A stretch of DNA of 64,000 nucleotides from an uncultured Gelidibacter sp. (GCF_947500795.1 NZ_CANMTE010000007.1:12456-76455), one strand, 5' to 3'; counted from the first letter of the stretch, positions 11,596-54,345 are shown. Made by a program: numbers and translations. The notes: generated from the sequence alone by a model not told the origin.

Positions 11596-11636
11596 CTCTA
11601 ATTTCTTAAATTTTAACTGGTCTTCTCAGACAGCTT

Positions 11637-29805: not shown

Positions 29806-29850
29806 TGCAGCTTTAGTCGCGCTCATAAATGCTATGATATATAGAAAGCT

Positions 29851-32625: not shown

Positions 32626-32643
32626 AATTTATTCATTTAAAAT

Positions 32644-35600
32644 TTAGAAACTTAACGATACATTTAAAAACACACTACTTGTAGTAGGTGATGATAGGTA
32701 TTCAAAACCTGTTGCATTGGTTGATGTTGCAAAAACAGATTCTGGATCAATACCGTTCAAGTTGTTTTTTATCATCCATACGTTATTAGCCGAAAGACCA
32801 ACTTTAGCACTTTGAAGTCCTGTATTACCTAACCATGATGATGGCAGTGTATAGTTTAAGTTAATATTTCTTAATCTTATGTTTGTAGCATCATAGATGT
32901 TTGCTTCATTGATACCCAAGTTTCCTGATCTTCCTGTAATTTGCTCCCAGTAACGTTGTGGAGAAACTGCCGTTGTATTAGCTGTATATCCTCCATTTCC
33001 ATCACTTACAACACCATCTACAATAATATCATTACGCTCTCCATTAACCACTGTAACGGCTGCATTTCCTGAACGTTGTAAAGCGTGGTTTGAACCTGAG
33101 AATATTTCTCCACCTAAACGTGCATCAATCAATACTCCTAAAGATAAGTTTTTGTAGGTAAACGTATTTGAGAAACCAACCATAGCATCAGGCTGTTGTT
33201 CACCTAATTTGAATTTTTCACTGCTGGCAGTAGGTATTCCGTCGCCATCTACAATAATTTTACCAAAATTAGGACTAGTTTCATCTTGAACTCTTGAGAA
33301 TCTTGTTCCCCAAATTTCACCGTAACCACCACCTTCAACAGCTAGAACAGATAAATTGTCAAAACCTCCTAAACCGTATTGTGTAACATCTTCAGACAAA
33401 CGCTCAATAGTGTTGTCGTTTTTAGAATAGTTGATGCTTGATTCCCAATTGAAGCCTTCTGGATTGTGAATGATTTTTCCGCGAAGTGCCAATTCAAAAC
33501 CTTTATTTTGAACATCACCTGCGTTTACTTTCTTAGAGTTATAACCACTTAATGGATCTAGAGGCAATGAGATTAATTGGTTGGTAGCGTTAGATTGGTA
33601 CCAAGCAAAATCCAATGCCAAACGGTTATTAAAGAATCGTCCTTCAAACCCAATCTCTTTAGATTTGATCAACTCACTTCTTAAATCTGGATTGTATAGC
33701 GTATTATTAGTTCCTGCAGTAGTATTTCCATTAGGATCAGAACCTATAGAATAGAAATTATATAATTCATAAGGTCCTAAATCATTACCTACAGTTGCAT
33801 AAGATGCTCTAATTTTACCAAAGCTTATCCAGCTTGGTAATTCTGAGCCACCTTTAGTTAACATTTCTGTAAATACAAATGATGTACTAACTGATGGATA
33901 AAAGAATGATCTGTTGTCTTTACTTAAAGTTGAAGACCAGTCGTTACGTCCTGTAAAATCCACAAATAAGAATCCGTCATAATTAACTTGGAAGGTTCCG
34001 TAAAGAGAGTTTGTTCTTCTTTCTGATGAACCTTGGTTTACACCTGGGCTGTTCACACCGTTATTCAATGAGAATAAGTTAGGCACCACAAGCTCTCCTG
34101 AACTACCGCTGATATTGTTAGATCTTCTTGCCATTAAATTTCCACCAAGAGTAATCGCACCACCAAATTTACCAACAACGTCATCCTGACTTGCCAATAC
34201 TAAGAAGCTGTAGTTTGTTTCAATAAAAGAATCTTTACCAAAATCATATCTACCTGTGTTATTACCTGGGCTACCAGAATATAATTTAGATTCTGAAGTT
34301 GTCGTATATAAATCTGCTCCAGCTTTAATTTCAGAACTTAACCAATCATTGAATTCATATTTCAAAGATCCATTTAATAAGAAACGATCTCTTGCATCAT
34401 CACTTAATCTGTTTTTAGCAGACCAATATGGGTTTTCTGCATTTTTATCAATAAACCATCTCATTTTTCCGAATTCATCTGAGTGGTTCTCAAATTGAGT
34501 CACATCTAAAGATACCGGTAAACGTGCAATGGTACCAAATGCGTTATTAACGTTACTACCATTTAAAGGTCTGTTTTCTGCTTTTGCATTAACATACTGT
34601 ACTTTAACATCTGTAGTCCATCTCTTATCTTCACCAAATTTAGATACCGCTCTTGTCATTAAGTTCAAGCGCTCCAAAGTAGATCCAGGGATGTTACTAT
34701 CATCATTTAAATAGTTAACTGAAGAGTAAAGTGACGTACCATCTGATACTTGTTGTTGAAATGAAAGGCTATAAGTTTGGTTAAAACCACCTTTATAGTA
34801 GTTCCCTAAATTGTCATAAGCACGTAAAGTAGTTTGCTCATTTTTCCAATCTGTTACCGTTTGTCCTTCAATTCTAGGACCCCAGCTTACTGTTGATTGA
34901 GCACCGTAAACACCTTCACTACCCTGTCCGAAAATTGTTTGAGTATCAGGCTCAATAAACAATCTTTCAAAACTAGTAGTTGCAGAGAATGTAATCCCTA
35001 AACCTTTTCTTGCTTTACCTGTTTTTGTTGTGATTAAGATAACACCGTTACCCGCACGAGAACCGTACAATGCCGCAGCAGATGCACCTTTTAAAACCGT
35101 CATGGTTTCAATATCGTCTGGATTTAAATCTCCAAGACCGTTACCCATATCTTGAGATGGGTTAAAGAAATCGGTATTGTCAGCACCAGTAAAGTTGTCC
35201 ATAGGAATTCCGTCCACCACAATTAAAGGTTGATTATCTCCAGTAAGTGAACTGTTTCCTCTTAAAACAATTTTTGAGGAACTCGCAGGTCCATTACTAC
35301 CTTTAATAACCTGAACACCCGCAATCTTACCTGATAAAGCATTGACTACGTTGGTTTCTCTGGCTTCTGTTAAGGCATCACCCTTAACTTCCTGAACCGC
35401 ATATCCTAAAGATTTACGATCTCTTTTAATCCCAAGAGCGGTAACTACCACCTCATCCAACTGACTAACATCTTCTACAAGCGACACATTAATGGTGCTT
35501 TGCCCATTAACACGAATTTCTTGTGTTGCGAAACCGATGTAAGAAAATTGCAAAGTGCTTGCAGCATCGGATACTTCAATACTGTAATTACCATCAAAAT

Positions 35601-35766
35601 CCGTTGTTACCCCTTTGGAAGTGCCTTTTACGATCACACTAACGCCCGGAAGTCCCAAATTACTTGCAGCATCTACAACAACTCCTTTTACCGTTGTTTG
35701 TGCTTGCATACCATAAGTGCAAAGAACGCCTAACACAAACAGTAAATTAAGTACCTTTTTTGTCAT
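32644..35766 (-). CDS. susC: SusC/RagA TonB-dependent transporter
   Basis: TDFDGNYSI, LDEVVVTALG, PLIVVDGIP, LKGASAAALYGSRAGNGVILITTK; C-terminal Phe. Confidence 0.97.
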   Translation of the reverse strand: MTKKVLNLLFVLGVLCTYGMQAQTTVKGVVVDAASNLGLPGVSVIVKGTSKGVTTDFDGNYSIEVSDAASTLQFSYIGFATQEIRVNGQSTINVSLVEDVSQLDEVVVTALGIKRDRKSLGYAVQEVKGDALTEARETNVVNALSGKIAGVQVIKGSNGPASSSKIVLRGNSSLTGDNQPLIVVDGIPMDNFTGADNTDFFNPSQDMGNGLGDLNPDDIETMTVLKGASAAALYGSRAGNGVILITTKTGKARKGLGITFSATTSFERLFIEPDTQTIFGQGSEGVYGAQSTVSWGPRIEGQTVTDWKNEQTTLRAYDNLGNYYKGGFNQTYSLSFQQQVSDGTSLYSSVNYLNDDSNIPGSTLERLNLMTRAVSKFGEDKRWTTDVKVQYVNAKAENRPLNGSNVNNAFGTIARLPVSLDVTQFENHSDEFGKMRWFIDKNAENPYWSAKNRLSDDARDRFLLNGSLKYEFNDWLSSEIKAGADLYTTTSESKLYSGSPGNNTGRYDFGKDSFIETNYSFLVLASQDDVVGKFGGAITLGGNLMARRSNNISGSSGELVVPNLFSLNNGVNSPGVNQGSSERRTNSLYGTFQVNYDGFLFVDFTGRNDWSSTLSKDNRSFFYPSVSTSFVFTEMLTKGGSELPSWISFGKIRASYATVGNDLGPYELYNFYSIGSDPNGNTTAGTNNTLYNPDLRSELIKSKEIGFEGRFFNNRLALDFAWYQSNATNQLISLPLDPLSGYNSKKVNAGDVQNKGFELALRGKIIHNPEGFNWESSINYSKNDNTIERLSEDVTQYGLGGFDNLSVLAVEGGGYGEIWGTRFSRVQDETSPNFGKIIVDGDGIPTASSEKFKLGEQQPDAMVGFSNTFTYKNLSLGVLIDARLGGEIFSGSNHALQRSGNAAVTVVNGERNDIIVDGVVSDGNGGYTANTTAVSPQRYWEQITGRSGNLGINEANIYDATNIRLRNINLNYTLPSSWLGNTGLQSAKVGLSANNVWMIKNNLNGIDPESVFATSTNATGFEYLSSPTTSSVFLNVSLSF

Positions 35767-35978: not shown

Positions 35979-38900
35979 TTATTTAACACGCGTTGTAAAT
36001 CCTACTGCACCAACACCAGTATTAGCATCTACAAGCCATGGCCCGCGATAAGGCATTTTAGTGTTTGGATATGTATCTCCTAAAAGATAGGTAAGAAGAG
36101 CACCTTTTTTAATGCGTTTTCCATTTAGGATGATGTGCAACTTTTTAGGGTTTTTAGAATGGACTTTCAACTCAGAAATTGAAGTAATTTTTTTAGAATT
36201 GATTGCAAATAATTGATCTTTTACGGAATAAACATGACCGTCCACTTTTAAGTCTGGCTGAATGGCTATAGGCTTGTCAAATTCGATAATTAGGGATTTA
36301 GCCGATTCTCGTGTTGCGCTCACTAATTGCGGCGCTTGATAGTCTACGGTGCCGTTATAAAAATCGTATATCGCCAAATTTGAAATCCAATCCGCCAACA
36401 CCTCATAACCATGCGCGTGGTAATGGCAGCCGTCTGACAAAAAATAATTGCCATCAAATAAAGGATTTTCTGGGAATCCATGACGCGTAATGATTTTCAC
36501 TTCTGAATGTTCTTCAGCAAATTGTCGTTGTGCTTCTCTCACCGTTTGATGCCCGCTTGATACGCTACATCCTGGCGGGGTTTGAACCACGTAAAATTTT
36601 TCAAATGTATAATCTGATTTGAGATTTTCATACAATTGATAAAGTGCGTTTTTATAATCAGACACCGAATCGCCCGCGTTACTTTCACCTTGATTCCAAA
36701 TAAATGCTTTGATGTAGTGCTTTAGTCCCGATGCGTCTAATTTGTGTTGCAATCGCCCGTAAGCTGCATTTAAACCATAATCGTTTTTTTGATAGGATGC
36801 AATGGCACCACCTCCGCCTGCACCGTTAATGATGGCGATGGGCACATTTTGAGAAGCTACTAAATTCAGACCAATATTCGAACCCAACACGCCCACCATG
36901 CCGTTGCCAACACGCTCTCCTTTCCCAACAATATCTGGTGCTTTCCCACTGGCTATATACCAGTCTGAGTTTTCAGCTTCAGGATAGATGGCTGGACTAT
37001 TGTACAAATGCATGGCACCAATGGTTCGCACCCATTGTGCATTTGAAGACAAACTTTCTTGATTATACACATTATCATAATCTATAGCCCAAGCGTTAGA
37101 TTGGCCACTTAACACGTACACATCACCAGCAGTGATATGCGTGGCTTTTTTAATCAGATAATCTTCATTTTCATGCTTAGCGAAGAGTTCAATGGTATAA
37201 TTGTGTTTTAGGGCTTCAATTTTTAAAGGAAGTGAAAAAGCACCATTTACACCCATGGCATGCTTCGTAATAATTCCCTTATCACGATGTACTTTTATAA
37301 GGATACTATCCACGCTACTGTCGGCAATACCAGAAACAGTTATCGTGGCGTTGTTAGTCGCATCTCTTGCATAGAGCTGATTGTCTTTGGGGAATTCAGT
37401 TACGGAAACCTTTGGCTCCGTATTAAAAACAGCTCTGAATTTTAAATCGTCCACCTCCTTAACAGCACCATTTTCTAAATGTATTGGCACACAGGTGAAC
37501 ATCCACTTCCATGAATTCTTATCTTGAGGAATTTTTAAAAGCACTTTATTCCATCCTTTTTTAAGGGCGATTTTAGTAGGTGCTCTAAAGAAATAATCTT
37601 CGTCTATAAATGGGATTTCGTCAGTTCGGGTACCTAAATTAGGTTGCTTCCAAACGGGCGGCGCTATTTCTGTTCCATTCACCCAAATTTTAGGATTGGT
37701 GGTATGCCATTGCCCCTGATCAGGAAATGGGCCTACACGTCTTCCGCCGGAGCGCGACCAACCCTGAAACCCTAACCAGAAATCCTGTACCCGATCGTCA
37801 GGCGCATAAATCTCCGTATAGGCATAATAGGTTCCTGTTTGGTCAGTAGTTAAAGCTGGAAATCCGAAAAAATGTTTAAAATGCGTCGTCCCACCAACGA
37901 TAGGTTGTGACCATTTATAATCTTTTCTGTCTATTTTATATAAAGCGACCAAGGAATCCTCAACTGGGAATCGCAGGTTCACATCGCCATTATGTTTAAA
38001 CGGCCCGATGACGTTCCATTCAAAGCTCGTTTGACGTACATATTGAAATTCTTTTCCATTAAAGAATAGGTCCCGGTGAGTGACGACTTTGTCTTCAAAC
38101 GCTATAAATTCCTTTAATTCTTTTGAACCGACTGGTGGCAACTTCGCCCAATATTCGAGCTTATTTTCTGCGCGTCCTTTCCAAATCGCATCCGCATAAA
38201 ACACGATGGATGGATAAATCGGATTTTGAATTAATATATCGCGCTCCTTGGCCACATTATTATCGGGCCACGCTGCTAAAATGCCGCCCAAGGCTAGAGC
38301 ATCACTTTGTGGTTGACGCGTAGGCTGTTGAAAAAACACCCGCGCCATTCCCGCAAAAGGATCTAAATGATTGATATAATTGGCGCGCGAATCTATAAAA
38401 CGATGTCCTTTACGTGGCGAGTGCTGTGCCCATAACTGATTGATGGAAGTGGAATCGTCTTCAATTTCAATGCCTTCTTTCCAAACAATAAGCTCTCTGT
38501 TTTTAGATTTGACACGATCCATGATGGTTTTGATAAACCCGTCTGGAACATATTCTTCCTTATTTCTAACTTCATCCGTACCAATATGAATGTACGGCAT
38601 CTCATCAGCGCTTGCCAAACCCATCAATTCATCAAACAAGTCCAATAAAACAGGGAGCGCCCGCTCATCTTTCATGTTTTCAAAACCCATCGCGTTTCTA
38701 AAAGCACGCGAATGTCCTGGAATATCAAATTCCGGAATCACGGTAATATGCCGTGCTTTACAAAATGCCAAAATCTCCTTAAAATCGTCTTGGGTGTAGA
38801 ACTTTCCTTTCCCTCGTGACGTAGCGTCTTCATTCTGCAATTGCGGATACAACTTACTCTCAAGTCGCCACCCTGGATCGTCAGTTAAATGCCAATGGAA

Positions 38901-39461
38901 TACATTGTATTTGTATTGGGACAAAACTTCCAACTGCTCTTTTAATTGGGCGACCGATTGGAAATTTCGGCCGGTATCGTGCATAAATCCTCTGATTTTA
39001 AATGCTGGCCAATCGGTGATTTGCAATTGTGGGATGACACCATAATCGTTCTGCTGTCTGAACACTTGTTGCAATGTTTTTATAGCATAATACGCGCCTT
39101 TTGCAGTGGTGGCCCATATTTTTATCTCAGAATCGAGTTGTATCTTATAGGCTTCTTCAGCATTATGAACCGGAATATGCTCCTGGATCATCTGGATTTT
39201 TAAACCGTCCGACGCTTCTGAAATACCATTGTTTTGGAAAAACGATTTCAATTGATTAGACTCACTGACAAAATCAGTTTTTACAATTTGAAAGGTCTTA
39301 AAGCTCACTTCACTCTTTCCGTATTCAATTTCCTGAGGTGTTGGTATGATGGGATACTTCTTCTCTAGAATATTTTTTTGAGTGGTACCAGCATAAACCT
39401 GGATCATCCCTATAAGGATGAATGCCACAATGCACCCAATATTTTTATAAGATAGATTCAT
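35979..39461 (-). CDS. Fusion: GH20 beta-hexosaminidase plus C-terminal SASA/CE6-like SGNH O-acetylesterase
   Basis: GH20: RGFMHDTGRNF, HWHLTDDPGWR, PEFDIPGH, IHIGTDEV. SGNH: VLSGQSNA, GAGGG, WNQGESN, DGCH. Probable start MNLSY at 39461 (ORF track 39491 overlaps GH27). Confidence 0.85.
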   Translation of the reverse strand: MNLSYKNIGCIVAFILIGMIQVYAGTTQKNILEKKYPIIPTPQEIEYGKSEVSFKTFQIVKTDFVSESNQLKSFFQNNGISEASDGLKIQMIQEHIPVHNAEEAYKIQLDSEIKIWATTAKGAYYAIKTLQQVFRQQNDYGVIPQLQITDWPAFKIRGFMHDTGRNFQSVAQLKEQLEVLSQYKYNVFHWHLTDDPGWRLESKLYPQLQNEDATSRGKGKFYTQDDFKEILAFCKARHITVIPEFDIPGHSRAFRNAMGFENMKDERALPVLLDLFDELMGLASADEMPYIHIGTDEVRNKEEYVPDGFIKTIMDRVKSKNRELIVWKEGIEIEDDSTSINQLWAQHSPRKGHRFIDSRANYINHLDPFAGMARVFFQQPTRQPQSDALALGGILAAWPDNNVAKERDILIQNPIYPSIVFYADAIWKGRAENKLEYWAKLPPVGSKELKEFIAFEDKVVTHRDLFFNGKEFQYVRQTSFEWNVIGPFKHNGDVNLRFPVEDSLVALYKIDRKDYKWSQPIVGGTTHFKHFFGFPALTTDQTGTYYAYTEIYAPDDRVQDFWLGFQGWSRSGGRRVGPFPDQGQWHTTNPKIWVNGTEIAPPVWKQPNLGTRTDEIPFIDEDYFFRAPTKIALKKGWNKVLLKIPQDKNSWKWMFTCVPIHLENGAVKEVDDLKFRAVFNTEPKVSVTEFPKDNQLYARDATNNATITVSGIADSSVDSILIKVHRDKGIITKHAMGVNGAFSLPLKIEALKHNYTIELFAKHENEDYLIKKATHITAGDVYVLSGQSNAWAIDYDNVYNQESLSSNAQWVRTIGAMHLYNSPAIYPEAENSDWYIASGKAPDIVGKGERVGNGMVGVLGSNIGLNLVASQNVPIAIINGAGGGGAIASYQKNDYGLNAAYGRLQHKLDASGLKHYIKAFIWNQGESNAGDSVSDYKNALYQLYENLKSDYTFEKFYVVQTPPGCSVSSGHQTVREAQRQFAEEHSEVKIITRHGFPENPLFDGNYFLSDGCHYHAHGYEVLADWISNLAIYDFYNGTVDYQAPQLVSATRESAKSLIIEFDKPIAIQPDLKVDGHVYSVKDQLFAINSKKITSISELKVHSKNPKKLHIILNGKRIKKGALLTYLLGDTYPNTKMPYRGPWLVDANTGVGAVGFTTRVK

Positions 39462-39468
39462 TATTTTT

Positions 39469-40656
39469 TTATTTTGACAATCGGTAGACAATCACATCTC
39501 GAGATGGCACCTCAATAGATAATTTCGAACTTGTATTGCCCATCATTTTGTCTTCCCATAAATCTTTAATTTGGTATACGTTCTCTGCTGAAAAATCTTT
39601 GATGTTGATTTTTGTCCAATCCACTTCATAGGTTTTAGTAGCGATGTCTCGATTAAAGAAGCAAATGGCAATGTCGCCGTTAGAAAGCGGTTTTTGCCAA
39701 ATTTCAAAATTTCCAAGATCAACAATTTTAAACCCTTGTTTTCCCAACACATCCTGATTGACTTCTAATAATCCTTTATGGGTTAAAATATGCTGATCCG
39801 TAGCATTCATAGTGCGTAAATCGTTGCCTGCCATTAAAGGTGCTGCCAACATACACCACATGCTAAAATGTGCTCTTGCTTCGTTTTCAGGCATCCCATT
39901 GTTGCCCACAGCCAACATATCCGGATCATTCCAATGTCCCGGTCCCGCATATTTTTCTAAGCCAACTTGCATGTCAACCAAGTCAGACCATCCAATCAAA
40001 TTACCCCAAATATTGCCGTCATAGCGGCCATTCATATCAATATCTAAGGTCGTGCGCCATAAGTGACCCACGTCCTTACCCCATTCCCATGGTTTGTTTT
40101 CACCCCATTCGCACAGGCTAAAAACAATAGGTCGGCCTGCTTTATATAGCGCGTCTCTCATAAGTGTATAGGATGCTATGGCATCTTGGCCTTCCGTAAA
40201 GCACCAATCGTATTTTAAATAATCAACACCCCACTTGGCATAGGTTTCTGCATCTTGCATTTCAAACCCTTTACTTCCAGGACGCCCAGCACAAGTTTTT
40301 GTACCCGCATCAGAATAGATGCCGAATTTCAAGCCTTTAGAATGCACATAATCAGCCAAACTTTTAATCCCTGATGGAAATTTCTCCTTATCAACAATGA
40401 TATAGCCGTTATCATCACGACCTATCTGCCAACAATCGTCAATAACAATGTATTCATACCCAGCGCCCTTAAGCCCCTTTTCAACCATAGCATCAGCCAT
40501 CTCCTTAATGACGGTTTCATTGACACCCTCACATTCAAAACTGTTCCAACTATTCCAACCCATTGGTGGTGTTTGTGCTAAATTTTCGAATTTTTGTGCC
40601 GTACTTTTGGTGGCGAAACCAAAGGCTAAAACGATTAAAAGAAACTTGATTTTCAT
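39469..40656 (-). CDS. GH27 alpha-galactosidase / alpha-N-acetylgalactosaminidase
   Basis: TPPMGWNSWN, YIVIDDCW, YLKYDWC nucleophile, WRTTLDI acid/base, WNDPDML; signal peptide. Confidence 0.95.
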   Translation of the reverse strand: MKIKFLLIVLAFGFATKSTAQKFENLAQTPPMGWNSWNSFECEGVNETVIKEMADAMVEKGLKGAGYEYIVIDDCWQIGRDDNGYIIVDKEKFPSGIKSLADYVHSKGLKFGIYSDAGTKTCAGRPGSKGFEMQDAETYAKWGVDYLKYDWCFTEGQDAIASYTLMRDALYKAGRPIVFSLCEWGENKPWEWGKDVGHLWRTTLDIDMNGRYDGNIWGNLIGWSDLVDMQVGLEKYAGPGHWNDPDMLAVGNNGMPENEARAHFSMWCMLAAPLMAGNDLRTMNATDQHILTHKGLLEVNQDVLGKQGFKIVDLGNFEIWQKPLSNGDIAICFFNRDIATKTYEVDWTKINIKDFSAENVYQIKDLWEDKMMGNTSSKLSIEVPSRDVIVYRLSK

Positions 40657-40671
40657 GGTTATATATTTTTT

Positions 40672-42753
40672 TTAATTTGAAAATGTGGATGCTGGCAATC
40701 CGGCATCATTGACTAAATTTCCGTTGGAAAAGGAACTATACACATACCTTACAAAGCGAGGGGTTTCAATTTCCGGGGACCAAATTTGCAAGACGTCATT
40801 CACGATTTTACTGTGTGCAGGAACAAATGTCTTGTCCGGTCCCGCAATATAAATATCATTCACAGAAGCGTTTCCTGGTGTTTTCAAACCTTGTCCGTGT
40901 TTAAAATGGACTTCCAACCTATTCTTGTTGACGTTTACAAAGTCTAAAAGTGGTCCGGAGAAAGAATTCTCAACACCATAAGTTTTATGAAGTGCTATTT
41001 TAGAAAGTCGCTCGCCCACAACCCATTTCTGTTTTGGATGCACATCAGTTTCATGGCCCACATCCAAACTGACCGCCATACCTGTATTTGGAATTTCCAA
41101 TAATCGGCGTTGCGAATCCCTAAACTCTCCCCAATTTGGACGATTGATACTGCTCAACTGCACATAATAAAAAGGCAATTCTGGAGTCTTGAAATGGCTA
41201 CGCCAATCGTCCACCAACAGTTTAAATAGTTTCGAATGCAAGTTGACATGCTCGGTATTTGATTCGCCTTGGTACCAGATGACGCCTTTTATTTTGTAAT
41301 CTCTGATGGGCATCACGCCTCCATCAAAGAGCATTGTTGGATGATAGGGATGTCTTGCCCTAATCCCATTCTTAGAAAGGCCTTTCATATTTAAAGCCGC
41401 ACGCTCTGCCACCCAAGTATCAACTTTAGGATGCAAGTGGGTATCATTAAGCAAACTCACGGTCTCAGGATGCTGTTCCATCGACTCCCTGCTGATCCAA
41501 CTTTGAATGGGCGCTCCACCCACAGCATTGTTAATGATTCCAACAGGAACCCCTAATTGCTTTTGAAGTTTATAGGCGAAGGCATAGGCTACTGCGGAAA
41601 AATCGTTTAGGTTTTCGGTTGTCGATGGAATCCATCCAGAGTTTTTGAAATACGAGTTGGCATTACATTCTTTAAGTTCAGCTTCTGTGTATGGTTTGTT
41701 AGACAATACTTTTCCGTCCATTGAGAATAGAAACACTTGCGGATTAAGGGAATCTTTTAAAACGGTCGCCGCATGTTCCATCTCACGGACTTTAAAGTCC
41801 ATGTTAGACTGCCCTGAAGCCAACCAAACCTCACCTATATACACCGACTTTATTTCAATAGAATTTTCAGCCGTTGCAAACTTTAAGGCATAAGGACCGC
41901 CTGCTGGCATTGGAGGAAAAGTGACCTGCCATTTGCCATGCACATCAGCTTTTGCTGTTTTCGAAACGTTGTTAAATCGAACAGTAATAGTTTCATCAGC
42001 ATTAGCTGTACCATTAAAACTAATCGGTTCATTACGTTGCAATACCATATTCTCGCCGTAGAGCACAGGGAGTTTTAATCCGCCGTAATCCCCAGTAAGA
42101 GCAGCATACACTTTATCGGCGATAACTGTTGCACCTTCTTTGGTGGGATGTAAATTATCAGGAAAGTATTCAGGAAATCTATAAAGTGGCTCGTGCAAAT
42201 CGATGACTTGTACTGCTGCTTTCTCGGCAATGCCTTCTATTTTTACTTGGATTTCCTTAAAACTTTCGCGCATGCCTTCTTCAAACCAATGGTGTCCAGA
42301 AAACGTGGGCGTCATTTTGCAAATCATAACTTCAGGCTTTGATGGCAGATTTTTGTAGAGTGCAATCATTTCCAAATAATCCTGTTCAAATTCGGCGTGG
42401 TGGTCTGGCCAGTTATTATTGCCTTGATCGTTCAGGCCTAAATGAATGATGACAATGTTAGGCCCAAAATCTTGTGACGCTTTAAATTGGGACGTTTTCC
42501 AATAAGGTTTATGTCCGTTTTTAAGCATAGTCGCCCCGGAATATCCAAAGTTTCCCACCTCGTAATTTGCGCCTAAACGCTCTTGCAGTTGTTGCGGATA
42601 GGAATTTTCTTCACGATCCTCAATTCCTGCCCCGAAGGTCACACTATCCCCCACACAGGCAACTTTTATGGTTTGGGAATTTAATAGGAAAGAAGAACAC
42701 AACATTAAACTCAGTAAAATTATGCGGTAATTATTTGAAGACTTTTTCATCAT
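40672..42753 (-). CDS. Two-domain sialate O-acetylesterase (GDSL/SGNH + SASA)
   Basis: VACVGDSVT...HLGLND...DNLHP, then WLASGQSNM...WYQGESN...DVHP. Probable start 42753 or 42750 (ORF track 42792). Confidence 0.9.
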   Translation of the reverse strand: MMKKSSNNYRIILLSLMLCSSFLLNSQTIKVACVGDSVTFGAGIEDREENSYPQQLQERLGANYEVGNFGYSGATMLKNGHKPYWKTSQFKASQDFGPNIVIIHLGLNDQGNNNWPDHHAEFEQDYLEMIALYKNLPSKPEVMICKMTPTFSGHHWFEEGMRESFKEIQVKIEGIAEKAAVQVIDLHEPLYRFPEYFPDNLHPTKEGATVIADKVYAALTGDYGGLKLPVLYGENMVLQRNEPISFNGTANADETITVRFNNVSKTAKADVHGKWQVTFPPMPAGGPYALKFATAENSIEIKSVYIGEVWLASGQSNMDFKVREMEHAATVLKDSLNPQVFLFSMDGKVLSNKPYTEAELKECNANSYFKNSGWIPSTTENLNDFSAVAYAFAYKLQKQLGVPVGIINNAVGGAPIQSWISRESMEQHPETVSLLNDTHLHPKVDTWVAERAALNMKGLSKNGIRARHPYHPTMLFDGGVMPIRDYKIKGVIWYQGESNTEHVNLHSKLFKLLVDDWRSHFKTPELPFYYVQLSSINRPNWGEFRDSQRRLLEIPNTGMAVSLDVGHETDVHPKQKWVVGERLSKIALHKTYGVENSFSGPLLDFVNVNKNRLEVHFKHGQGLKTPGNASVNDIYIAGPDKTFVPAHSKIVNDVLQIWSPEIETPRFVRYVYSSFSNGNLVNDAGLPASTFSN

Positions 42754-42760
42754 AAATAAG

Positions 42761-43462
42761 TTATAGCGATCCAACAATCCAAAGTACAACATACGGCGAA
42801 ATAAGTGTGGTCAGAATTCCATTGACACACATGGCCAATCCACTATACGCGCCGGGTAAAGGTCCGATTTCAATAGCACGCGCAGTACCGATACCATGTG
42901 CTGCGGTCCCGAGCGCCGTTCCTACAGCGGTCTGGCTTTTGATGCCTATTAACCTCAAAAATCCCGATCCAAAGGCATTTCCAAAAACCCCTACCGCAAT
43001 CACAACACCTGCCGTTAAGGAAGGAATTCCTTCAGTGATTTTGGTGATTTCAATCGCTATTGGCGTGGTGACTGACATGGACACAAGTGACCTGATGAGC
43101 ACATCAGGAGCATGCATCGCAATAGAAATTAAGGATACCGAAGCAATACTGATGATACCGCCACAACCTACGGCCAATAAAAAAGGGTAAATGTTATGTT
43201 CGATCAGTTGGTATTTTTCATAAAAGAGAACACCAAGCGCTACAATGGCTGGTCCCAGAAAAAAACTCAAATATTGTCCGCCTTTATTATAATCCTCAAA
43301 AGGGATATCAAAAACTACCAAAAACAGAATAATGAGTGTAATGGCTACTAAAACAGGATTAAATAAAACGAATTTTATTTTGGACCGTAAAGCTCGCGCA
43401 GCAAAAAAAACCACGACGGTAAGAAGAATGCCAAAAACGGGAAGCTGATAGAAGTCAATCAT
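42761..43462 (-). CDS. lrgB: LrgB-family membrane protein
   Basis: FLGPAIVALG, SVTTPIAIEI, ALGTAAHGIGTARA; probable start MIDFY at 43462, overlapping the lrgA stop (ATGATTGA). Confidence 0.92.
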   Translation of the reverse strand: MIDFYQLPVFGILLTVVVFFAARALRSKIKFVLFNPVLVAITLIILFLVVFDIPFEDYNKGGQYLSFFLGPAIVALGVLFYEKYQLIEHNIYPFLLAVGCGGIISIASVSLISIAMHAPDVLIRSLVSMSVTTPIAIEITKITEGIPSLTAGVVIAVGVFGNAFGSGFLRLIGIKSQTAVGTALGTAAHGIGTARAIEIGPLPGAYSGLAMCVNGILTTLISPYVVLWIVGSL

Positions 43463-43793
43463 GTTTTTCCAGTTTTTGTTGTACGAACGCTGTAATGTAG
43501 AGGGTGAGTAGCGTCGTGACAACTGCAATAACAGATAGAATCATCCAGTAAGCACTTATAAAATCAAAGTACGACATGAGTCCAACGCCATAAGGCACAA
43601 AAAACAGTACCATGTACTTCAATAGTTGATCTGAAGCCGGTTTCACGTCTTTCAGCTGGATCAACTTTAATTTTAAAGCGCTGAAAATTAAAATCATCCC
43701 CAAGATATTCCCAGGAATTGGAACATCTGACACGTAGCGAATCAACTCTCCTATCCCGAGGAATAAAAAAATCCAGAGGAATGCTTTGAGCAT
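43455..43793 (-). CDS. lrgA: CidA/LrgA-family membrane protein
   Basis: VPIPGNILGMIL, LLKYMVLFFVPYGVGLM; probable start MLKAF at 43793. Confidence 0.92.
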   Translation of the reverse strand: MLKAFLWIFLFLGIGELIRYVSDVPIPGNILGMILIFSALKLKLIQLKDVKPASDQLLKYMVLFFVPYGVGLMSYFDFISAYWMILSVIAVVTTLLTLYITAFVQQKLEKHD

Positions 43794-43847
43794 TTGTAAT
43801 CGACTACGGAGTGGACTCATTAATTTTCAGCGCTATGAGAAAAAAGG

Positions 43848-44975
43848 TTATTTTTTCTTAGGTTTTTGATAGGTGTCTGCACCATCAGTCAACCAATTTA
43901 GTGAAAAACTCACAAATGGATTCTTAGTATAGTTATCTTGTTCAAAGAACAATCCGATATCACCATTATCAAGAATTGTCATCTCTGAATATGCAGAAGA
44001 CCCTTCATAAATAGTTTTTCCTTCTGACCAGGTTTTTCCTTCGTCATAACTGATACGCACGGTCATATTAACACGTCCTTTTTCAGATTTCGCATTTGAA
44101 AAAAGTAGTCTGTTCTTTTTGTAACCATCTTCAATTGACGTATAGCGAATGATGCTGGCATTACATCCTGGATCAATCAACTCTGGCGCAGGAACGGTAG
44201 TCCATGATTTTCCTTCATCTGTAGAGGTGTGCACGTAACGTAAGCCTTTGCCATTAACACGAGCGTTGATCATTAAGGTACCATCAGCAAGCTCAATCAC
44301 TTTGGATTCGTCAGCTGGTTGAATTGGCGTGTCTATAAAATACCAAGTTTTACCGTGGTCATCACTACCAAACAAGTGTAGGCCACTATTCAAATTCACC
44401 ATGGTATGCAATAATTTGCCTGAGCGGGTTTGGATACCTCTTCCTGAAGTGATGAATTTAAAATCTTTGTGCCATTCTGATTTCGCGATTTGTGAGGTAA
44501 TATCTACCGGTTTACTCCAGGTTTTACCGTTATCAGAACTCTTCACATAATGTAGGTAATAGATATCTTTTTCAGTATCCAAATTCATATAATTATAGAA
44601 CATGAAAATCTCATTGGTTACGTGATCTACAATAAATGAAGGATCAGAAGCTGATTCACCATAAGGGAAATCGACTGCCGTTTCAATATCTGACCATGTT
44701 TTCCCATTATCAGCGCTTCGTCTGACAATAATATTAATGTCCTTACTGAATTTCAAATCGCCACAGCCAGGCACACGTTCATCAATTGCCGCAATCACAT
44801 CGCCATTTGGGGCGGTAATAATGGCTGGAATACGGTAACACTCTACACCTTCAGTCATTGAAGTGTTGAACAAATCTTGAAATACGGGCGCACCATCATT
44901 TGTGCTCGTGTTTTGGGTTTTTACACCGCAATTAAAAAGGAATACTGGAATCAGTAATGCAATTAGTTTTCTCAT
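43848..44975 (-). CDS. nanH: GH33 exo-alpha-sialidase, catalytic-domain-only lipoprotein
   Basis: Lipobox LFNC; YRIP; five Asp-boxes (SADNGKTW, SSDNGKTW, SDDHGKTW, STDEGKSW, SYDEGKTW); catalytic residues in ADESK, NAR, KGR and SAYS. Confidence 0.93.
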   Translation of the reverse strand: MRKLIALLIPVFLFNCGVKTQNTSTNDGAPVFQDLFNTSMTEGVECYRIPAIITAPNGDVIAAIDERVPGCGDLKFSKDINIIVRRSADNGKTWSDIETAVDFPYGESASDPSFIVDHVTNEIFMFYNYMNLDTEKDIYYLHYVKSSDNGKTWSKPVDITSQIAKSEWHKDFKFITSGRGIQTRSGKLLHTMVNLNSGLHLFGSDDHGKTWYFIDTPIQPADESKVIELADGTLMINARVNGKGLRYVHTSTDEGKSWTTVPAPELIDPGCNASIIRYTSIEDGYKKNRLLFSNAKSEKGRVNMTVRISYDEGKTWSEGKTIYEGSSAYSEMTILDNGDIGLFFEQDNYTKNPFVSFSLNWLTDGADTYQKPKKK

Positions 44976-45017
44976 GGTTAAAAATGTATTATTTATTATT
45001 CTCTTATTATCGGATAT

Positions 45018-45059
45018 AGAATTAAGACTGCTTCGCTGTTAGAATTAAGAATCAAGACT
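45018..45059 (-). repeat. Inverted copy of the 42-bp dispersed repeat (GCGAAGC core)
   Basis: Reverse complement AGTCTTGATTCTTAATTCTAACAGCGAAGCAGTCTTAATTCT versus AGTCTTGATACTTTGTTCTAGCAGCGCAGCGATCTTAATTCT at 10169. Confidence 0.75.
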
Positions 45060-45188
45060 TAATTAGGACTTTAATAATAGACAATCTGTGTTTAAAATAG
45101 ATTTGCCCAATTATTCTCATACTTTTTTTTCAAATGAATACATTCATTTTGAAGCTCTCGAATCAGTCCCTATCTGTTTTGACAGTCT

Positions 45189-45962
45189 TTATTCGTACAT
45201 ATTATGCACATTCGCGTGATGTAATTCTTCAAAAAAATCAGCGATGTTGCTTACTACAGCGTCTAAAAATGCTTTGCCTTTTTCTGCAGTCGCTTTTATC
45301 GGATTACCCACACCGGTATCTTCAGTTACCTGTGTCCATTGACGTTGCGAGCTCACCCAACCTTCTCTAAGGCCTTTAATTTTAAATTGTTTGGCACTTC
45401 CACTTCCTGCTTGCTCAAGTGGTAATACCAAATTTGGCACAATATGCATCACTGCAGAAGTCTCCAACTCGCCGGCATGATCTCCAGGTTCATCAAAATA
45501 GTCTTTAGCATTGGCTGCCTGAAACCAGTTTAGGGCACAGACAAACACGTTTGGAAATTCTATGCTCAGTTCGCGAATCATCTGCTTAAAATTATTGCCG
45601 CCGTGTGCATTGACGATCACTAATTTTTGAATGTTTTGACCATCCAACACCTCAACCACATCTCTCAAAACAGCATATTGTGTGCTTGGATTCATATTGA
45701 TACATAACGAAATGTCCATCTGACCTGTATTCACTCCAAAAGGAATGGTTGGCAACACCACCACCTTCGCACCCTTATTCCAGGCTTGTTCCGCAGCAGC
45801 GATAGCCACATATTCTGCTTGAATATTATCAGTGGCATACGGCAGGTGGTAATTATGGGCTTCCGTAGCGCCCCATGGCAAAATAGCTACCGTATAATTG
45901 GTGTCTTTAACTGACTTCCAATTGGTTTCTGCCAACACATAAGGTCGTATAGCGTTCGTCAT
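45189..45962 (-). CDS. Creatininase-family metallo-amidohydrolase
   Basis: LPWGATEAHNYHLPYATD (E-x-H...D), NAHGGN, DHAGELETS; metal ligands intact; no signal peptide. Confidence 0.9.
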   Translation of the reverse strand: MTNAIRPYVLAETNWKSVKDTNYTVAILPWGATEAHNYHLPYATDNIQAEYVAIAAAEQAWNKGAKVVVLPTIPFGVNTGQMDISLCINMNPSTQYAVLRDVVEVLDGQNIQKLVIVNAHGGNNFKQMIRELSIEFPNVFVCALNWFQAANAKDYFDEPGDHAGELETSAVMHIVPNLVLPLEQAGSGSAKQFKIKGLREGWVSSQRQWTQVTEDTGVGNPIKATAEKGKAFLDAVVSNIADFFEELHHANVHNMYE

Positions 45963-45966
45963 CGTA

Positions 45967-47127
45967 TTATTTCTTTTGTTCTATTTTTTCGAACGATTTC
46001 CAACATTGGTACATCGCTCTTGGCACATGGAAACATCCTTTCCATTTGCCACCTTTTAAATCTAATAACACCTCGCCTTGGCGGTTCAAATAACCATACC
46101 ATTCGCCATTTTCAGGATCTGAGAAATGAGACCACGCATACTCGTGAACCTTTTCATACCAATCCATCAATTCTTTTCTCCCTGTGTGTTCATACGCTTT
46201 AGATAATGCGACCAAAGCTTCTAAGTGTACCCACCATAGTTTTTGATCCCACTCCAACTGTTGTGGCGGTTTGTTCATGACGTCCATAAAGTATAGGATT
46301 CCGCCATACTTTTTATCCCATCCGTAGTCCAAAATTCTTAGGATGGTATCCGCAGCTTTATTGATCAATTCCTTATCATTTCTTCTCACCCCAATATCAA
46401 TCATAAACCACATGGCTTCAATACCGTGACCCGGATTTATAAGTCGGCCGTTATAACTATCCTCATGCGTGCCATCAGGACGGACAAATTCGTACACAAG
46501 TCCGGATTCTTTATCTAAAAACACATTCATGACTTCATTGATACTGAAATCGATGGTTTTGTTCACTTCCTCTTCATCCAAAACCCCTTCCAATTCCAAC
46601 ACTAAGTTGGACAAAATCATTGGCAAGGAAAAACTTTTCAACGGGCGCTCACTGGTCGTTTTCTCGTAACTCCCTTTTGGATTGTCTTTCTTTTTAAGAA
46701 TATTCAAATAGGTTTGCTTGGCGAGTTGTTTAATTTCTTCATCACCAGATGCCATAGCGTATTGACTAAAAGCCATCGCTGCAAAACAATCTGAAAAAAT
46801 ATTATACGGCTGTACTAACGGATTTCCTTCTTTGGTTGTCGAGAAATAGAAATTGCCATCTTTATCCATACCGTGTTTAATGATAAAGTCAATACCATGT
46901 TTGGCTAACTTCAACCAGTTTTCATTTTTTTCGACAGTATTGTAAAGCATAGAAAAGGTCCACGCTTGACGACCTTGAAGCCACATAAATTTATCCGTAT
47001 CATAAACTTTACCTGTTTTATCCAAACATGTAAAATAACCACCATGCTCTGTATCAATCGAGTGTTGTTCCCAAAAAGGGATGACATCATTCAACAAAGT
47101 GTTTTTATAAAGTGTTGTATAGTTCAT
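45967..47127 (-). CDS. nanE: N-acylglucosamine 2-epimerase (AGE family)
   Basis: [51 protein letters not shown]. Confidence 0.93.
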
Positions 47128-47187: not shown

Positions 47188-47209
47188 TGTATATGTAATA
47201 CATAATACA
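47188..47209. promoter_or_regulatory. Candidate GntR (NanR-like) operator, nanE side
   Basis: GTATATGT-AAT-ACATAATAC; core TGTAATACATAATACA (47194-47209) matches 54330-54345 at 14/16. Confidence 0.6.
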
Positions 47210-47216
47210 AACTTAG

Positions 47217-47249
47217 CAAATTTAGATTGATAAATTACATTTGCACAAA
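47217..47249 (-). promoter_or_regulatory. Bacteroidota sigma70-type promoter for the nanE operon
   Basis: Minus strand TTTG(47249-46)-N21-TAAATTTG(47224-17). A plus-strand -7 box TACATTTG (47236-43) probably serves the GntR gene. Confidence 0.7.
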
Positions 47250-47259: not shown

Positions 47260-47979
47260 ATGAAAAATCGCATTGCCATAAAGCCCTTAACTAATTTAAG
47301 CCTAGTAGATAAGGTAGAAATAAGTATTACAGAATATATTAAAAATAATAAGCTTCAGGTTGGTGATGCGATCCCAAAAGAAACGGAGTTTGCTGAGACT
47401 TTGGGGGTGAGTAGAACGGTGATTAGAGAAGCCCTTACCCGATTGCGCACGATTGGCATTATCGATTCAAAAAAACATAAAGGCATGGTTTTAAGCCAGC
47501 CGGACTTTATTTTGAATTTTGAGAAAGTGATGAGCCTTAACTTAATGGGCGATGAAGCTTTAAAGGATATTTTTGAAATGCGTTTGATTCTAGAAATGGG
47601 GATGGTCGATTTAGTGTTCGCCAGAAAAACAGCCGAAGACTTGGAAGAGTTGACCAAAATAGTAGATAGAATGGAGAAAAAGTCTCCCCATTCGAGTGTT
47701 TTTAGTTTGAAAAATGAGGTGGCATTTCACGGAAAACTTTACGAAATGTCAGGCAACAGAACTTTGCAACGCGTACAAAATATTTTGTTACCGGTGTTTC
47801 AATACGTGCATGACCACAAATTATCAGATGCCAAAACCTATAAGTATTCCAAGAAATTCGTCACGCATCGCGATCTTTTAAATTACCTAAAGGATGACGA
47901 CATTAAAAAATTCAGAAAAGGATTGGCGCAGCATTTAGAACCTCATTTTGAGAGAGTCCTTATGAATTCTGAATTTTAA
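47260..47979 (+). CDS. FadR/GntR-family transcriptional regulator (NanR-like)
   Basis: wHTH motif GDAIPKETEFAETLGVSRTVIREAL; C-terminal FCD domain (EVAFHGKLY); embedded in the nan cluster. Confidence 0.93.
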   Translation: MKNRIAIKPLTNLSLVDKVEISITEYIKNNKLQVGDAIPKETEFAETLGVSRTVIREALTRLRTIGIIDSKKHKGMVLSQPDFILNFEKVMSLNLMGDEALKDIFEMRLILEMGMVDLVFARKTAEDLEELTKIVDRMEKKSPHSSVFSLKNEVAFHGKLYEMSGNRTLQRVQNILLPVFQYVHDHKLSDAKTYKYSKKFVTHRDLLNYLKDDDIKKFRKGLAQHLEPHFERVLMNSEF

Positions 47980-48418
47980 CTTTAACCACTACTTTTTTCA
48001 CGTTTGATGGAGCTCCAGTAGTCACTTCGGGCATGTGGATATCGTCTGGAAAGAAGATGGCATACATTCCTGCTTTAACCGTGATAATGTCATAAGGCTC
48101 CTCAAATAGCATGTAATCATCTTCTGGATCATAGGCTTTTTTAGGGTCTTGTCCTGATTTCATAGTGACGCCCATATGCTCAACACCTTCAATTACATAT
48201 TGTACATCAATATATTTGATGTGAGACTCCATAAGTTGATCTTCAATTGGCTTTGTTGGGTATTCCTTTAAAATAGCAAAGACAGCATCGCCATCAATCT
48301 CATGTTTGCCTACTGGCAAGGCATCAAAATTGGTGTTTTTAATATACGCTAACGCCTTATCAATCCCTTTGTGAAGGCCTTTGTATAGGCCTATGTTTTC
48401 AATTTTATCTACAATCAT
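47960..48418 (-). CDS. nanQ: YhcH/YjgK/YiaL-family protein (NanQ-like)
   Basis: ESHIKYIDVQY, IFFPDDIHMP, VKKVVVKV; adjacent to nanA. Family is clear; orthology to NanQ is inferred from context. Confidence 0.85.
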   Translation of the reverse strand: MIVDKIENIGLYKGLHKGIDKALAYIKNTNFDALPVGKHEIDGDAVFAILKEYPTKPIEDQLMESHIKYIDVQYVIEGVEHMGVTMKSGQDPKKAYDPEDDYMLFEEPYDIITVKAGMYAIFFPDDIHMPEVTTGAPSNVKKVVVKVKIQNS

Positions 48419-48498: not shown

Positions 48499-49404
48499 TT
48501 AATTACTTAAATGTTCTAATAATCCGATACGCTCCAATTCTGCCCTGATTTCAACATAAACATCATCAGAAAGCGTGGCATGTGGAAATCTGCTTGGTCC
48601 ACAATCGATGCCCAAAGTCTTCATAAAGCCTTTAGCAACGCCGTTAAATCCACCGTAACCATCTAATATTTCAACAAATCGTATTGCTTTTGTTTGCAAT
48701 GCAGCTGCTTCAGCCATTTTGCCTTCTTCAAACAAAGATTTTATTTTATAATATGCCGGTGCTAAATGGTTATAAGTACTTCCTACCCATCCATCAGCTC
48801 CTAATGGTAAACTTGAAAGAAAGATCTCATCAAATCCGAAAAGGATGTTGTATTTACCGCCTTCAAAATTCTTGCAATGCAAATAATCGATCAGGTTGTT
48901 ATTGGTAAACTTGATGCCTTCTAAATTCGGGATTTCTTTAGAGGCCACTTTTAAGAACTCAGCCATGTTTAAATTGGCGCCACTCAACACTGGAATGTGG
49001 TAATAGTAAAACGGTAAATTAGGCGCACAAGCGGCAACTTCTTTACAATAGTGCACCAACTTATCAATACTATTTAATTTAAAATAGTAAGGCGCTAATA
49101 CAGCAATGGCGTCTACTTTATCTGCAGCAAATGTCGCTAAGTCTTTTGCCACCTTCAAACTTGGATCTCCAACGTGGTCAATCAAATATAAATCTGACGA
49201 TTTATGTTTAGCCCAAGCACTGGTTATTTCCTTGCGCTCTTCAGTAGATAAGGACACGAAGTCTCCTGTGGAGCCATTCATAAAAATTCCGGCTACTTTA
49301 TTTTTAACCAAAAATTCTCCATAGGCCTTAATAACACTGGTATTTAATGAACCATCTTGGTGCATTGGCGCATAGGTAGCTGCTATTAAATTATTTATTT
49401 TCAT
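48499..49404 (-). CDS. nanA: N-acetylneuraminate lyase (DHDPS family)
   Basis: NGSTGDF, YYYHIP, Schiff-base GIKFT, FGFDE, GWVGSTYN; nan context. Confidence 0.92.
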   Translation of the reverse strand: MKINNLIAATYAPMHQDGSLNTSVIKAYGEFLVKNKVAGIFMNGSTGDFVSLSTEERKEITSAWAKHKSSDLYLIDHVGDPSLKVAKDLATFAADKVDAIAVLAPYYFKLNSIDKLVHYCKEVAACAPNLPFYYYHIPVLSGANLNMAEFLKVASKEIPNLEGIKFTNNNLIDYLHCKNFEGGKYNILFGFDEIFLSSLPLGADGWVGSTYNHLAPAYYKIKSLFEEGKMAEAAALQTKAIRFVEILDGYGGFNGVAKGFMKTLGIDCGPSRFPHATLSDDVYVEIRAELERIGLLEHLSN

Positions 49405-54323: not shown

Positions 54324-54345
54324 GTATTATGTTATACATAATGCA
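54324..54345. promoter_or_regulatory. Candidate GntR operator, susC side
   Basis: Imperfect palindrome GTATTATGT-TAT-ACATAATGC abutting the -7 box. Confidence 0.65.

Follow-up and report, generated by a model that had tools for sequence, protein, structure and literature searches.

A 64,000-nucleotide stretch of DNA (contig C7:12456-76455; hereafter the window) from a Gelidibacter sp. of the family Flavobacteriaceae (genome 3.46 Mb, 99.97% complete) carries on its minus strand, at 35979-47127, eight genes that, judged by their sequence, are the enzyme arm of a Bacteroidota nan-type sialoglycan-utilisation locus (a sialoglycan polysaccharide-utilisation locus). Embedded in this arm are a gene for a creatininase-fold hydrolase, here called creat, and the gene pair lrgAB, which encodes a two-subunit membrane protein of the LrgAB family. 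An earlier note on this DNA had taken the eight genes as one new, dedicated module for the removal of acyl groups from modified sialic acids, an interpretation that is partly supported. Most of the string is not novel: nanE, the GH33 sialidase gene, GDSL-SASA, GH27 and GH20-SASA, together with the flanking SusCD, nanA, DUF386 and GntR/FCD genes, constitute the usual Bacteroidota sialoglycan locus and are not a new system. What appears to be new from comparative sequence analysis is the creat-LrgAB unit embedded in the nan locus, its co-conservation and its predicted control by NanR; full-text literature searches returned no relevant paper for creatininase with sialic acid, creatininase with LrgB, or Flavobacteriaceae nan. 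The locus as a whole is probably best explained as a standard nan operon that recruited a creat-LrgAB unit with a role in sialic-acid use, the unit itself being, by its distribution, a seemingly pre-existing and mobile two-part element. The structural and regulatory part of this explanation is held with considerable confidence, and the substrates assigned to creat and LrgAB are tentative.

Co-conservation and predicted regulation of creat and lrgAB

In the Gelidibacter locus, creat (45189-45962, minus strand) begins 4 nt after nanE (45967-47127, minus strand), the gene for an AGE-type N-acylglucosamine 2-epimerase that converts N-acetylmannosamine (ManNAc) to N-acetylglucosamine (GlcNAc; NF052547 equivalog, 659.5 bits versus a cut-off of 600; PF07221). 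As in genome G025 and Flavobacteriaceae strain MAR_2010_105, creat is separated by the sialidase gene only (43848-44975, minus strand) from lrgA (43455-43820, minus strand) and lrgB (42761-43462, minus strand). The lrgB open reading frame extends to 43528, and with its likely true start at 43462 the two lrg genes overlap by 8 nt.

A survey covered 150 Flavobacteriaceae genera, each represented by a single genome, and took at least 51% identity to define a nanE orthologue. creat orthologues were present in 37 genomes and nanE orthologues in 16, and creat occurred in 12 of the 16 nanE-positive genomes versus 25 of the 135 others (Fisher p = 8.7e-6, ignoring phylogeny). A tree of 41 creat orthologues resolved two clades, A and B, of which clade A comprises every gene linked to nan or to lrgAB; LrgB orthologues were found in six genomes of the census, all six with a clade-A creat (Fisher p = 3e-8, also ignoring phylogeny). 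Inside nan loci, creat was found in at least eight Flavobacteriaceae genera. For example, the locus of Polaribacter atrinae matches that of Gelidibacter gene for gene, including creat, without lrgAB, and rearranged nan loci with creat occur in Arenibacter certesii, G045, G059, G061 (Galbibacter marinus), G025 and strain MAR_2010_105.

A species-level genome scan for LrgB recovered 32 loci, 29 of them on contigs extending far enough to be evaluable, and in 27 of these 29 creat lies within 7 kb of the LrgB orthologue (at least 51% identity). Twelve of the 32 loci are of the Gelidibacter type and ten of them carry the complete nanE-creat-GH33-lrgA-lrgB series, while locus L053 is truncated upstream, within GH33, and the contig of L057, a Gelidibacter metagenome-assembled genome (MAG), starts upstream of creat, has no nanE match and carries SusC2 directly after lrgB. 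The order nanE-creat-GH33-lrgA-lrgB-GDSL/SASA is kept in ten further Gelidibacter-type species-level records and in MAR_2010_105, with GH27 and GH20/SASA next in most of them. Four loci belong to Arenibacter, where the two complete ones read creat-GH33-GntR(-)-nanE-lrgA-lrgB-NanM/SSF, and two to Galbibacter, where lrgAB stands alone and creat lies in a nan locus elsewhere. The remaining 14, from Salegentibacter/Zunongwangia, consist of a stand-alone creat-lrgA-lrgB tricistron with 7-nt gaps and 1-4-nt overlaps at its junctions, an arrangement also present in Antarcticibacterium. The co-occurrence of creatininase, lrgAB and nanA/nanE genes that the earlier note had named as a check of its proposal was recovered: creat and lrgAB are conserved together, and in several genera nanE/nanA are conserved along with them. 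Among other Bacteroidia, distant LrgAB homologues (35-44% identity) had no nan or creat context, and none of the creat orthologues in other Bacteroidia families lay inside a nan locus.

Some neighbours of the stand-alone units were also recorded. In Salegentibacter loci L009, L040 and L042, a gene for phosphoenolpyruvate (PEP) synthase (PpsA) lies 2-3 genes downstream of creat-lrgA-lrgB, which may be mere synteny, and a gene for an ArsO/MSMEG_0569-like flavoprotein is divergently transcribed from the Salegentibacter unit. The Pyr_redox_3 neighbour of stand-alone units was considered as a bacillithiol disulfide reductase, which would have hinted at a BshB-like GlcNAc-malate deacetylase, and was rejected, as its YpdA score was only 66-78 bits versus 340 and it is ArsO/MSMEG_0569-like.

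Transcription of the eight genes from a single promoter, as the earlier note had proposed, is consistent with the motif scans. A Bacteroidota-type promoter (TTTG-N21-TAAATTTG, with TTTG at -33 and TAAATTTG at -7; 47217-47249, minus strand), an exact match to the consensus TTTG-N17-21-TANNTTTG, sits 90 nt upstream of the nanE ATG, and neither a full-consensus promoter of this type nor a convincing terminator was found inside the string. A scan for sigma-70 promoters and terminators gave no excess over shuffled sequence. Downstream of the nanE promoter, at 47192-47204, lies the perfect palindrome TATGTA-A-TACATA, the predicted operator of a GntR/FCD regulator (predicted NanR) encoded divergently from nanE at 47260-47979 on the plus strand (PF00392 + PF07729; best NCBIfam match NanR PRK03837). 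The gene for this regulator adjoins nanE in every nan locus examined, and TATGTA-N-TACATA fits the GntR/FadR-type pattern TnGTnnnACnA. A second predicted copy with one mismatch, TATGTTATACATA, lies upstream of susC1 at 54328-54340. Only two perfect copies occur in the 3.46-Mb genome, one before nanE and one before the gene for a NanM-SSF fusion permease (C3:538815), and sites with at most one mismatch number 12, fewer than in shuffled sequence (mean 34.6). Of the approximately 100 loci fetched, nearly all related ones carry the motif at their nan promoters, and it was present in none of approximately 50 non-nan loci scanned. On this basis a small NanR regulon is predicted here, comprising susC1-susD1-nanA, the nanE operon and NanM-SSF.

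The same motif recurs at creat and lrgAB in other arrangements. In G025, where creat-GH33-lrgA-lrgB forms a separate unit, and in G059, whose creat is monocistronic, it immediately precedes creat, and in Arenibacter it lies upstream of nanE-lrgA-lrgB. In the 3.6-Mb genome of Galbibacter marinus, TATGTATNACATA has three occurrences: one precedes nanE, one precedes nanA, and one lies approximately 75 nt ahead of the unlinked lrgAB and abuts a TATATTTG -7 box. A second Galbibacter genome gave the same picture. creat and lrgAB thus appear, from motif matches, to be under the same predicted sialic-acid regulator in several genera. As lrgAB is tied to sialic-acid genes in three ways in three genera, inherited synteny alone is hard-pressed as an explanation. 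Control of the LytST-lrgAB type is not supported: the LytS-like kinase (PF06580)/LytTR regulator pair of the window lies at 28747-30561, beyond a second SusCD pair and approximately 12 kb from lrgAB, and no such pair occurs within 7 kb of any stand-alone creat-lrgAB unit. The pair is not conserved with the creat-lrgAB unit. In Gelidibacter such control may nonetheless operate; in the MAG locus L057, a LytS-like/LytTR pair (10595-12071) lies 3.5 kb from lrgB.

Several points weigh against the explanation of a recruited unit with a role in sialic-acid use. The operator is a motif prediction, neither Fisher test takes account of phylogeny, and an internal promoter may lie concealed in the 213-nt gap that separates creat from the sialidase gene. 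The nan loci of G091, G065, G063 and G116 (nanE-GH33-SSF) lack creat, and no non-orthologous replacement for it was seen in them. Among 17 genomes with the stand-alone tricistron, 12 lack nanA and five have a nanA orthologue; no nan operator lies upstream of the stand-alone units, even in nanA-positive Salegentibacter. The unit is not specific to sialic acid: because it is kept in nanA-less genomes, and there without a NanR operator, its basic job would be independent of sialic acid, and its true substrate may be a general metabolite. The clade-B genes have housekeeping neighbours and frequently come immediately after a gene of the FA_hydroxylase family. A constant operon partner was sought for them and none was found: FA_hydroxylase recurs in several genera, and the neighbours are otherwise heterogeneous (DUF998, SIR2, LOG, DUF155, CN_hydrolase, GNAT, carbonic anhydrase and glycosylasparaginase). 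No genome encodes both clades, which differ at four diagnostic positions, and their near-identity argues for a general, not a sialic-specific, creat substrate.

Families and putative roles of creat and LrgAB

The 257-residue creat product is a predicted cytoplasmic creatininase-fold binuclear-metal amidohydrolase (PF02633, 196.5 bits versus a gathering score of 31.3) with no signal peptide and no transmembrane segment. Its best database match is from Gelidibacter sediminis (95% identity) and its closest structure is PDB 3LUB from Bacteroides fragilis (45% identity, E = 1.5e-66), which is without assigned function. An AlphaFold2 model had a TM-score of 0.79 to 3LUB and of 0.64-0.68 to the creatininase CrnA, and the modelled fold matched solely creatininase-family PDB entries at E < 1e-9. 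Residues E34, H36, D45, H120, H162 and E167 are invariant in the 41 creat orthologues; E34, H36, D45, H120 and E167 align with the CrnA metal ligands Glu34, His36, Asp45, His120 and Glu183, and H162 with its catalytic His178. With the true-creatininase model TIGR04448, creat scores 70.3 bits versus a cut-off of 235, the H-Y-E of CrnA aligns with H-G-G (Gly-Gly in place of Tyr121-Glu122), and the Trp174 region falls in a gap. By these comparisons, creat is not a true creatininase (EC 3.5.2.10).

The lrg genes encode the adjacent small (approximately four transmembrane segments) and large (at least six) subunits that define the LrgAB family, both above the cut-offs of their hidden Markov models. 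LrgA matches PF03788 (99 bits; best NCBIfam match PRK01821) with 3-4 hydrophobic segments, and LrgB matches PF04172 (236 bits) with at least six, as expected of an LrgAB/YohJK-type carboxylate transporter. The best curated matches of the pair are E. coli YohJ/YohK-type models, all below equivalog cut-offs. Whether LrgAB proteins are cell-death holins or carry metabolites is still disputed; the plant LrgAB fusion PLGG1 moves glycolate and glycerate, and E. coli YohJK exports 3-hydroxypropionate. Bacterial LrgAB/PftAB proteins move pyruvate (PMC5626966, PMC6790026, PMC8805020).

Under the preferred explanation, the nanE promoter and its downstream operator, bound by the divergently encoded GntR/FCD protein, would drive the enzyme arm. 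The periplasmic GH33, GDSL-SASA, GH27 and GH20-SASA enzymes would free animal glycans of O-acetyl groups, sialic acid and the hexosamine/galactose residues beneath, SusCD and NanM-SSF (encoded on contig C3 behind the same operator) would import the sialic acid, NanA would split it into ManNAc and pyruvate, and NanE would convert ManNAc to GlcNAc. LrgAB would carry a C2-C3 carboxylate whose flux rises in sialic-acid catabolism. As NanA yields one pyruvate per sialic acid, a valve for pyruvate overflow and recapture, as in PftAB/LrgAB of the Firmicutes, would be its simplest role in this regulon and is its most likely one, with glycolate or acetate freed by de-N-acylation as alternative cargo. 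That lrgAB forms a tight operon with an amidohydrolase gene suggests a shared channel: the acid product or carboxylate substrate of creat would pass through LrgAB, and creat would then cleave an amide bond of some small metabolite of the cytoplasm to which that acid is linked. Since the N-acyl group is the sole amide in the nan context, the preferred, weakly supported guess is de-N-acylation of an N-glycolyl or N-acetyl hexosamine that is poorly handled by the NagB-PIG-L protein described below. The proximity of creat orthologues to glycosylasparaginase and to acetyl-transfer genes (GNAT, SIR2) offers weak hints of de-N-acylation. The narrower proposal that creat removes N-glycolyl (or other non-acetyl N-acyl) groups from sialic-acid-derived hexosamines, with LrgAB expelling the hydroxy-acid, is a speculative one with the odds well against it.

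In genus g263, from another Bacteroidia family, creat orthologues (52-55% identity; loci L032-L034) lie divergent from glycosylasparaginase and beside SusCD and a gene for a protein of approximately 1170 residues. This locus is a second, independent amino-sugar/glycopeptide context for the creat group.

The most durable rivals concern how much of the string acts together. According to the first, which is the reading of the earlier note and seems rather unlikely, all eight genes form one module for acyl stripping and small-acid handling of N-glycolylneuraminic acid (Neu5Gc), O-acetylated and formamido/acetamidino nonulosonates, with creat as the N-deacylase and LrgAB exporting or recovering glycolate, acetate and formate. 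Neu5Gc is common in marine deuterostomes, PLGG1 provides a family precedent for glycolate/glycerate as cargo, and the association of creat with nan genes is confined to marine Flavobacteriaceae and not seen in other Bacteroidia families. creat and lrgAB are tightly linked, and the acyl-stripping genes that the earlier note described, two for esterases and one for an amidohydrolase, are indeed present, bringing three esterase domains and one amidohydrolase together in one string. However, the O-acetyl-stripping part of that proposal is already known, as the esterase/GH20/GH33 portion belongs to the canonical Bacteroidota nan locus, which comprises a GDSL-SASA esterase, GH20, GH33, an AGE epimerase and SusCD (PMC5512079, PMC10017367). 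In addition, creat-lrgAB is separable from this portion, being present in nanA-less genomes while some nan loci are without creat, the locus holds no lyase or epimerase paralogues for sugars of the legionaminic/pseudaminic acid (Leg/Pse) type, and nan-linked and housekeeping creat have almost the same active site.

About equally improbable is that LrgAB alone is relevant to sialic acid, as an overflow and recapture valve for the pyruvate released by NanA, and that creat is a housekeeping hitch-hiker. The Galbibacter lrgAB carries the nan operator without an adjoining creat, the Arenibacter lrgAB comes right after nanE and away from creat, and pyruvate is the experimentally shown substrate of bacterial LrgAB/PftAB (PMC5626966, PMC6790026). 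The PEP synthase gene downstream of the stand-alone unit in Salegentibacter and the lipid and housekeeping synteny of clade-B creat also fit this possibility. It does not account, however, for creat in the lrgAB-less nan loci of Polaribacter, A. certesii, G045 and G059, for the single creat gene with its own operator in G059, or for the enrichment of creat in nanE-positive genomes.

NagA is absent from this near-complete genome and from 138 of 151 Flavobacteriaceae, and creat could on that account be the missing GlcNAc(-6-P) deacetylase, a non-orthologous replacement of NagA that completes the NanA-NanE route. Its position immediately after nanE, whose product is GlcNAc, and the orthologues beside glycosylasparaginase/SusCD in another family favour this possibility, which is nevertheless unlikely. 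The deacetylase gap is plausibly filled by a 642-residue protein in which NagB (PF01182) is fused to a PIG-L/LmbE de-N-acetylase domain (PF02585; C4:60416-62344), encoded in a cluster with a Gfo/Idh/MocA oxidoreductase, an MFS permease, an APH-family kinase, an NTP-transferase and a LacI regulator; from its domains, this fusion may be the usual GlcNAc-6-P deacetylase/deaminase of the family. Moreover, 8 of the 13 NagA-positive genomes also encode creat, so that there is no mutual exclusion, four nanE-positive genomes have neither NagA nor creat, and the operon with lrgAB is left unexplained. Given the fusion and the co-occurrence of NagA and creat, creat is not needed to explain GlcNAc catabolism.

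It is very unlikely that LrgAB is the inner-membrane importer of sialic acid (or ManNAc) in place of NanT/SSF. No MFS/SSF permease lies inside the nan loci of Gelidibacter, G025 and MAR_2010_105, and the lrgAB-less loci of A. certesii, G045, G059 and G061 carry NanM-SSF; Galbibacter, however, has both lrgAB and NanM-SSF, and the known substrates of the family are C2-C3 acids. LrgAB was rejected as the sialate permease on the evidence of NanM-SSF, which has a perfect operator on contig C3 and adjoins lrgAB in Arenibacter sp. 6A1 and A. nanhaiticus. Hardly credible, finally, is the face value of the database names, its sole support, which would make creat a true creatininase and LrgAB a holin/antiholin-like regulator of murein hydrolases, both unrelated to the glycan genes, given the TIGR04448 score of creat and its lack of counterparts to Tyr121-Glu122 and Trp174 of CrnA, the absence of creatinase or sarcosine oxidase neighbours in any of approximately 90 loci, and the operator and synteny that tie both genes to nan.

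Gene content of the locus and its genomic surroundings

Reading of open reading frames and domain profile searches confirmed the eight genes of the earlier note, their coordinates, order, domains and common minus strand, with spacings from nanE through GH20-SASA of 4, 213, 27, -8, approximately -9, 15 and approximately -9 nt. The GH33 exo-sialidase is a lipoprotein (BNR_2/BNR_3) with an LFNC lipobox, YRIP and five SxDxGxTW Asp boxes. Downstream of lrgB follow three genes, likewise on the minus strand: a two-domain GDSL(SGNH)+SASA sialate O-acetylesterase of the NanS/EstA type (40672-42792; PF13472 + PF03629; GQSNM and QGESN motifs), whose architecture is the same as that described for Bacteroidota EstA/NanS (PMC5512079, PMC9063846); a secreted GH27 alpha-galactosidase/alpha-N-acetylgalactosaminidase (39469-40656; Melibiase_2, 252 bits, plus a C-terminal domain); and a GH20 beta-hexosaminidase fused to a C-terminal SASA esterase domain (35979-39491; PF02838 + PF00728 + PF03629; GQSN and QGESN intact). 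The GH20-SASA fusion of Gelidibacter and Polaribacter corresponds to a GH20 of approximately 680 residues and a separate GDSL esterase of approximately 217 residues in Arenibacter, G025 and MAR_2010_105, so that a second esterase is constant in these loci, though from different folds.

The 213-nt interval between creat and the sialidase gene (44976-45188) holds a dispersed repeat of approximately 40 bp (core approximately 45018-45061) that recurs on contigs C1 (five copies in a tandem-like array, C1:640021-640260), C2, C3 and C4. The insertion is confined to the clade of G. sediminis, G. salicanalis and this genome, other Gelidibacter having approximately 20 nt at the same junction. From this sequence comparison, the gap is a seemingly recent lineage-specific insertion, and the repeat may be a small element like a repetitive extragenic palindrome (REP) or a miniature inverted-repeat transposable element (MITE).

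The upstream arm of the locus, assigned by profile matches and on the minus strand throughout, comprises a DUF386/YhcH anomerase-like gene (47960-48418), nanA, a putative lyase gene of the DHDPS family (48499-49404), susD1 (49500-51008) and susC1 (51019-54273), and is syntenic in Polaribacter, Gelidibacter and MAR_2010_105. The best matches of the nanA product are N-acetylneuraminate lyase models, below their curated cut-offs (158 versus 281 and 133 versus 382 bits), and every related locus keeps nanA in synteny with nanE, GH33 and SusCD. Beyond the enzyme arm, after a gap of 212 nt, profile searches identified the second SusC/SusD pair (30712-35766, minus strand), which likewise follows GH20-SASA in Polaribacter and lies directly after lrgB in L057. 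The same strand of the window carries, at 508-28463, a large N-glycan degradation locus encoding GH2, PNGase F, four GH92, two GH29, GH20, glycosylasparaginase, a fucP/NagP-like MFS protein, DUF4015, GH18, CBM9, GH130 and SSF. Together, the N-glycan and nan loci look like a complete kit for complex sialylated N-glycans. The NanM (mutarotase)-SSF fusion permease (C3:536067-538676) is 70% identical to those inside other nan loci. Its gene lies close to an end of contig C3, in a second glycan locus with two GH20 genes, a fucosidase-like gene and SusC, and one larger sialoglycan region may have been split between contigs by the assembly.

Significance and comparison with known systems

Sialic-acid catabolism is regarded as a closed pathway of lyase, epimerase, kinase, NagA and NagB. 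The presence, in several marine genera and in three independent gene arrangements, of a conserved amidohydrolase-LrgAB unit with predicted nan co-regulation suggests that sialic-acid use by marine Bacteroidota, which play a large part in breaking down animal and algal glycans, includes an unrecognised step or an overflow valve. It also provides a physiological context and candidate substrates for two orphan groups, the 3LUB-like branch of the creatininases and the LrgAB of Bacteroidota, and the predicted NanR operator can be used to map sialic-acid regulons in the Flavobacteriaceae. If the N-glycolyl proposal were true, the unit would represent the first dedicated bacterial route for the Neu5Gc-type sialic acids of marine animals, would give the 3LUB branch its first assigned function and would be the first LrgAB system to be coupled to an enzyme.

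Compared with CrnA of Pseudomonas putida (PDB 1J2T, 3A6J), creat shares the fold and retains the metal ligands and the catalytic His, but is only 18-21% identical and does not keep the creatinine-binding Glu122 and Trp174. PLGG1 and YohJK belong to the same family as the Gelidibacter LrgAB and have C2-C3 hydroxy-acid substrates, the type expected from de-N-glycolylation, although their organisms and contexts are unrelated to this locus. In E. coli, Neu5Gc is catabolised through NanA, NanK, NanE and NagA with release of glycolate, a precedent for an amidohydrolase that frees glycolate from a sialic-acid-derived hexosamine; the E. coli enzyme is, however, the ordinary NagA and has no known dedicated exporter, whereas Gelidibacter lacks NagA and has an amidohydrolase of another fold.

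PftAB (YsbAB) of Bacillus subtilis and LrgAB of Streptococcus mutans and Staphylococcus aureus share with the Gelidibacter pair a two-gene overlapping architecture, PF03788/PF04172 and a pyruvate-producing context (PMC5626966, PMC6790026, PMC8805020). In contrast to these Firmicutes systems, which are under LytST/LytSR, the Gelidibacter unit is predicted to be under a GntR/FCD sialic-acid regulator, and lrgAB of the Gelidibacter type is partnered with a cytoplasmic amidohydrolase. The nan loci of Bacteroides fragilis and Tannerella forsythia (nanL/A, AGE-type nanE, nanT, nanOU, nanH, estA/nanS, GH20) have the same AGE epimerase and GH33, and a lyase to which the putative one of Gelidibacter corresponds (PMC10017367, PMC5512079, PMC9063846), and a GDSL+SASA O-acetylesterase, GH20, SusCD adjoining the lyase gene and DUF386/YhcH are also common to them and the Gelidibacter locus. 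Unlike in those species, the regulator in Gelidibacter is a GntR/FCD protein with a predicted TATGTA-N-TACATA operator, the permease is a NanM-SSF fusion encoded outside the locus, the second esterase is fused to GH20, GH27 has been added, and a creatininase-fold hydrolase and lrgAB are embedded among the sialoglycan genes.

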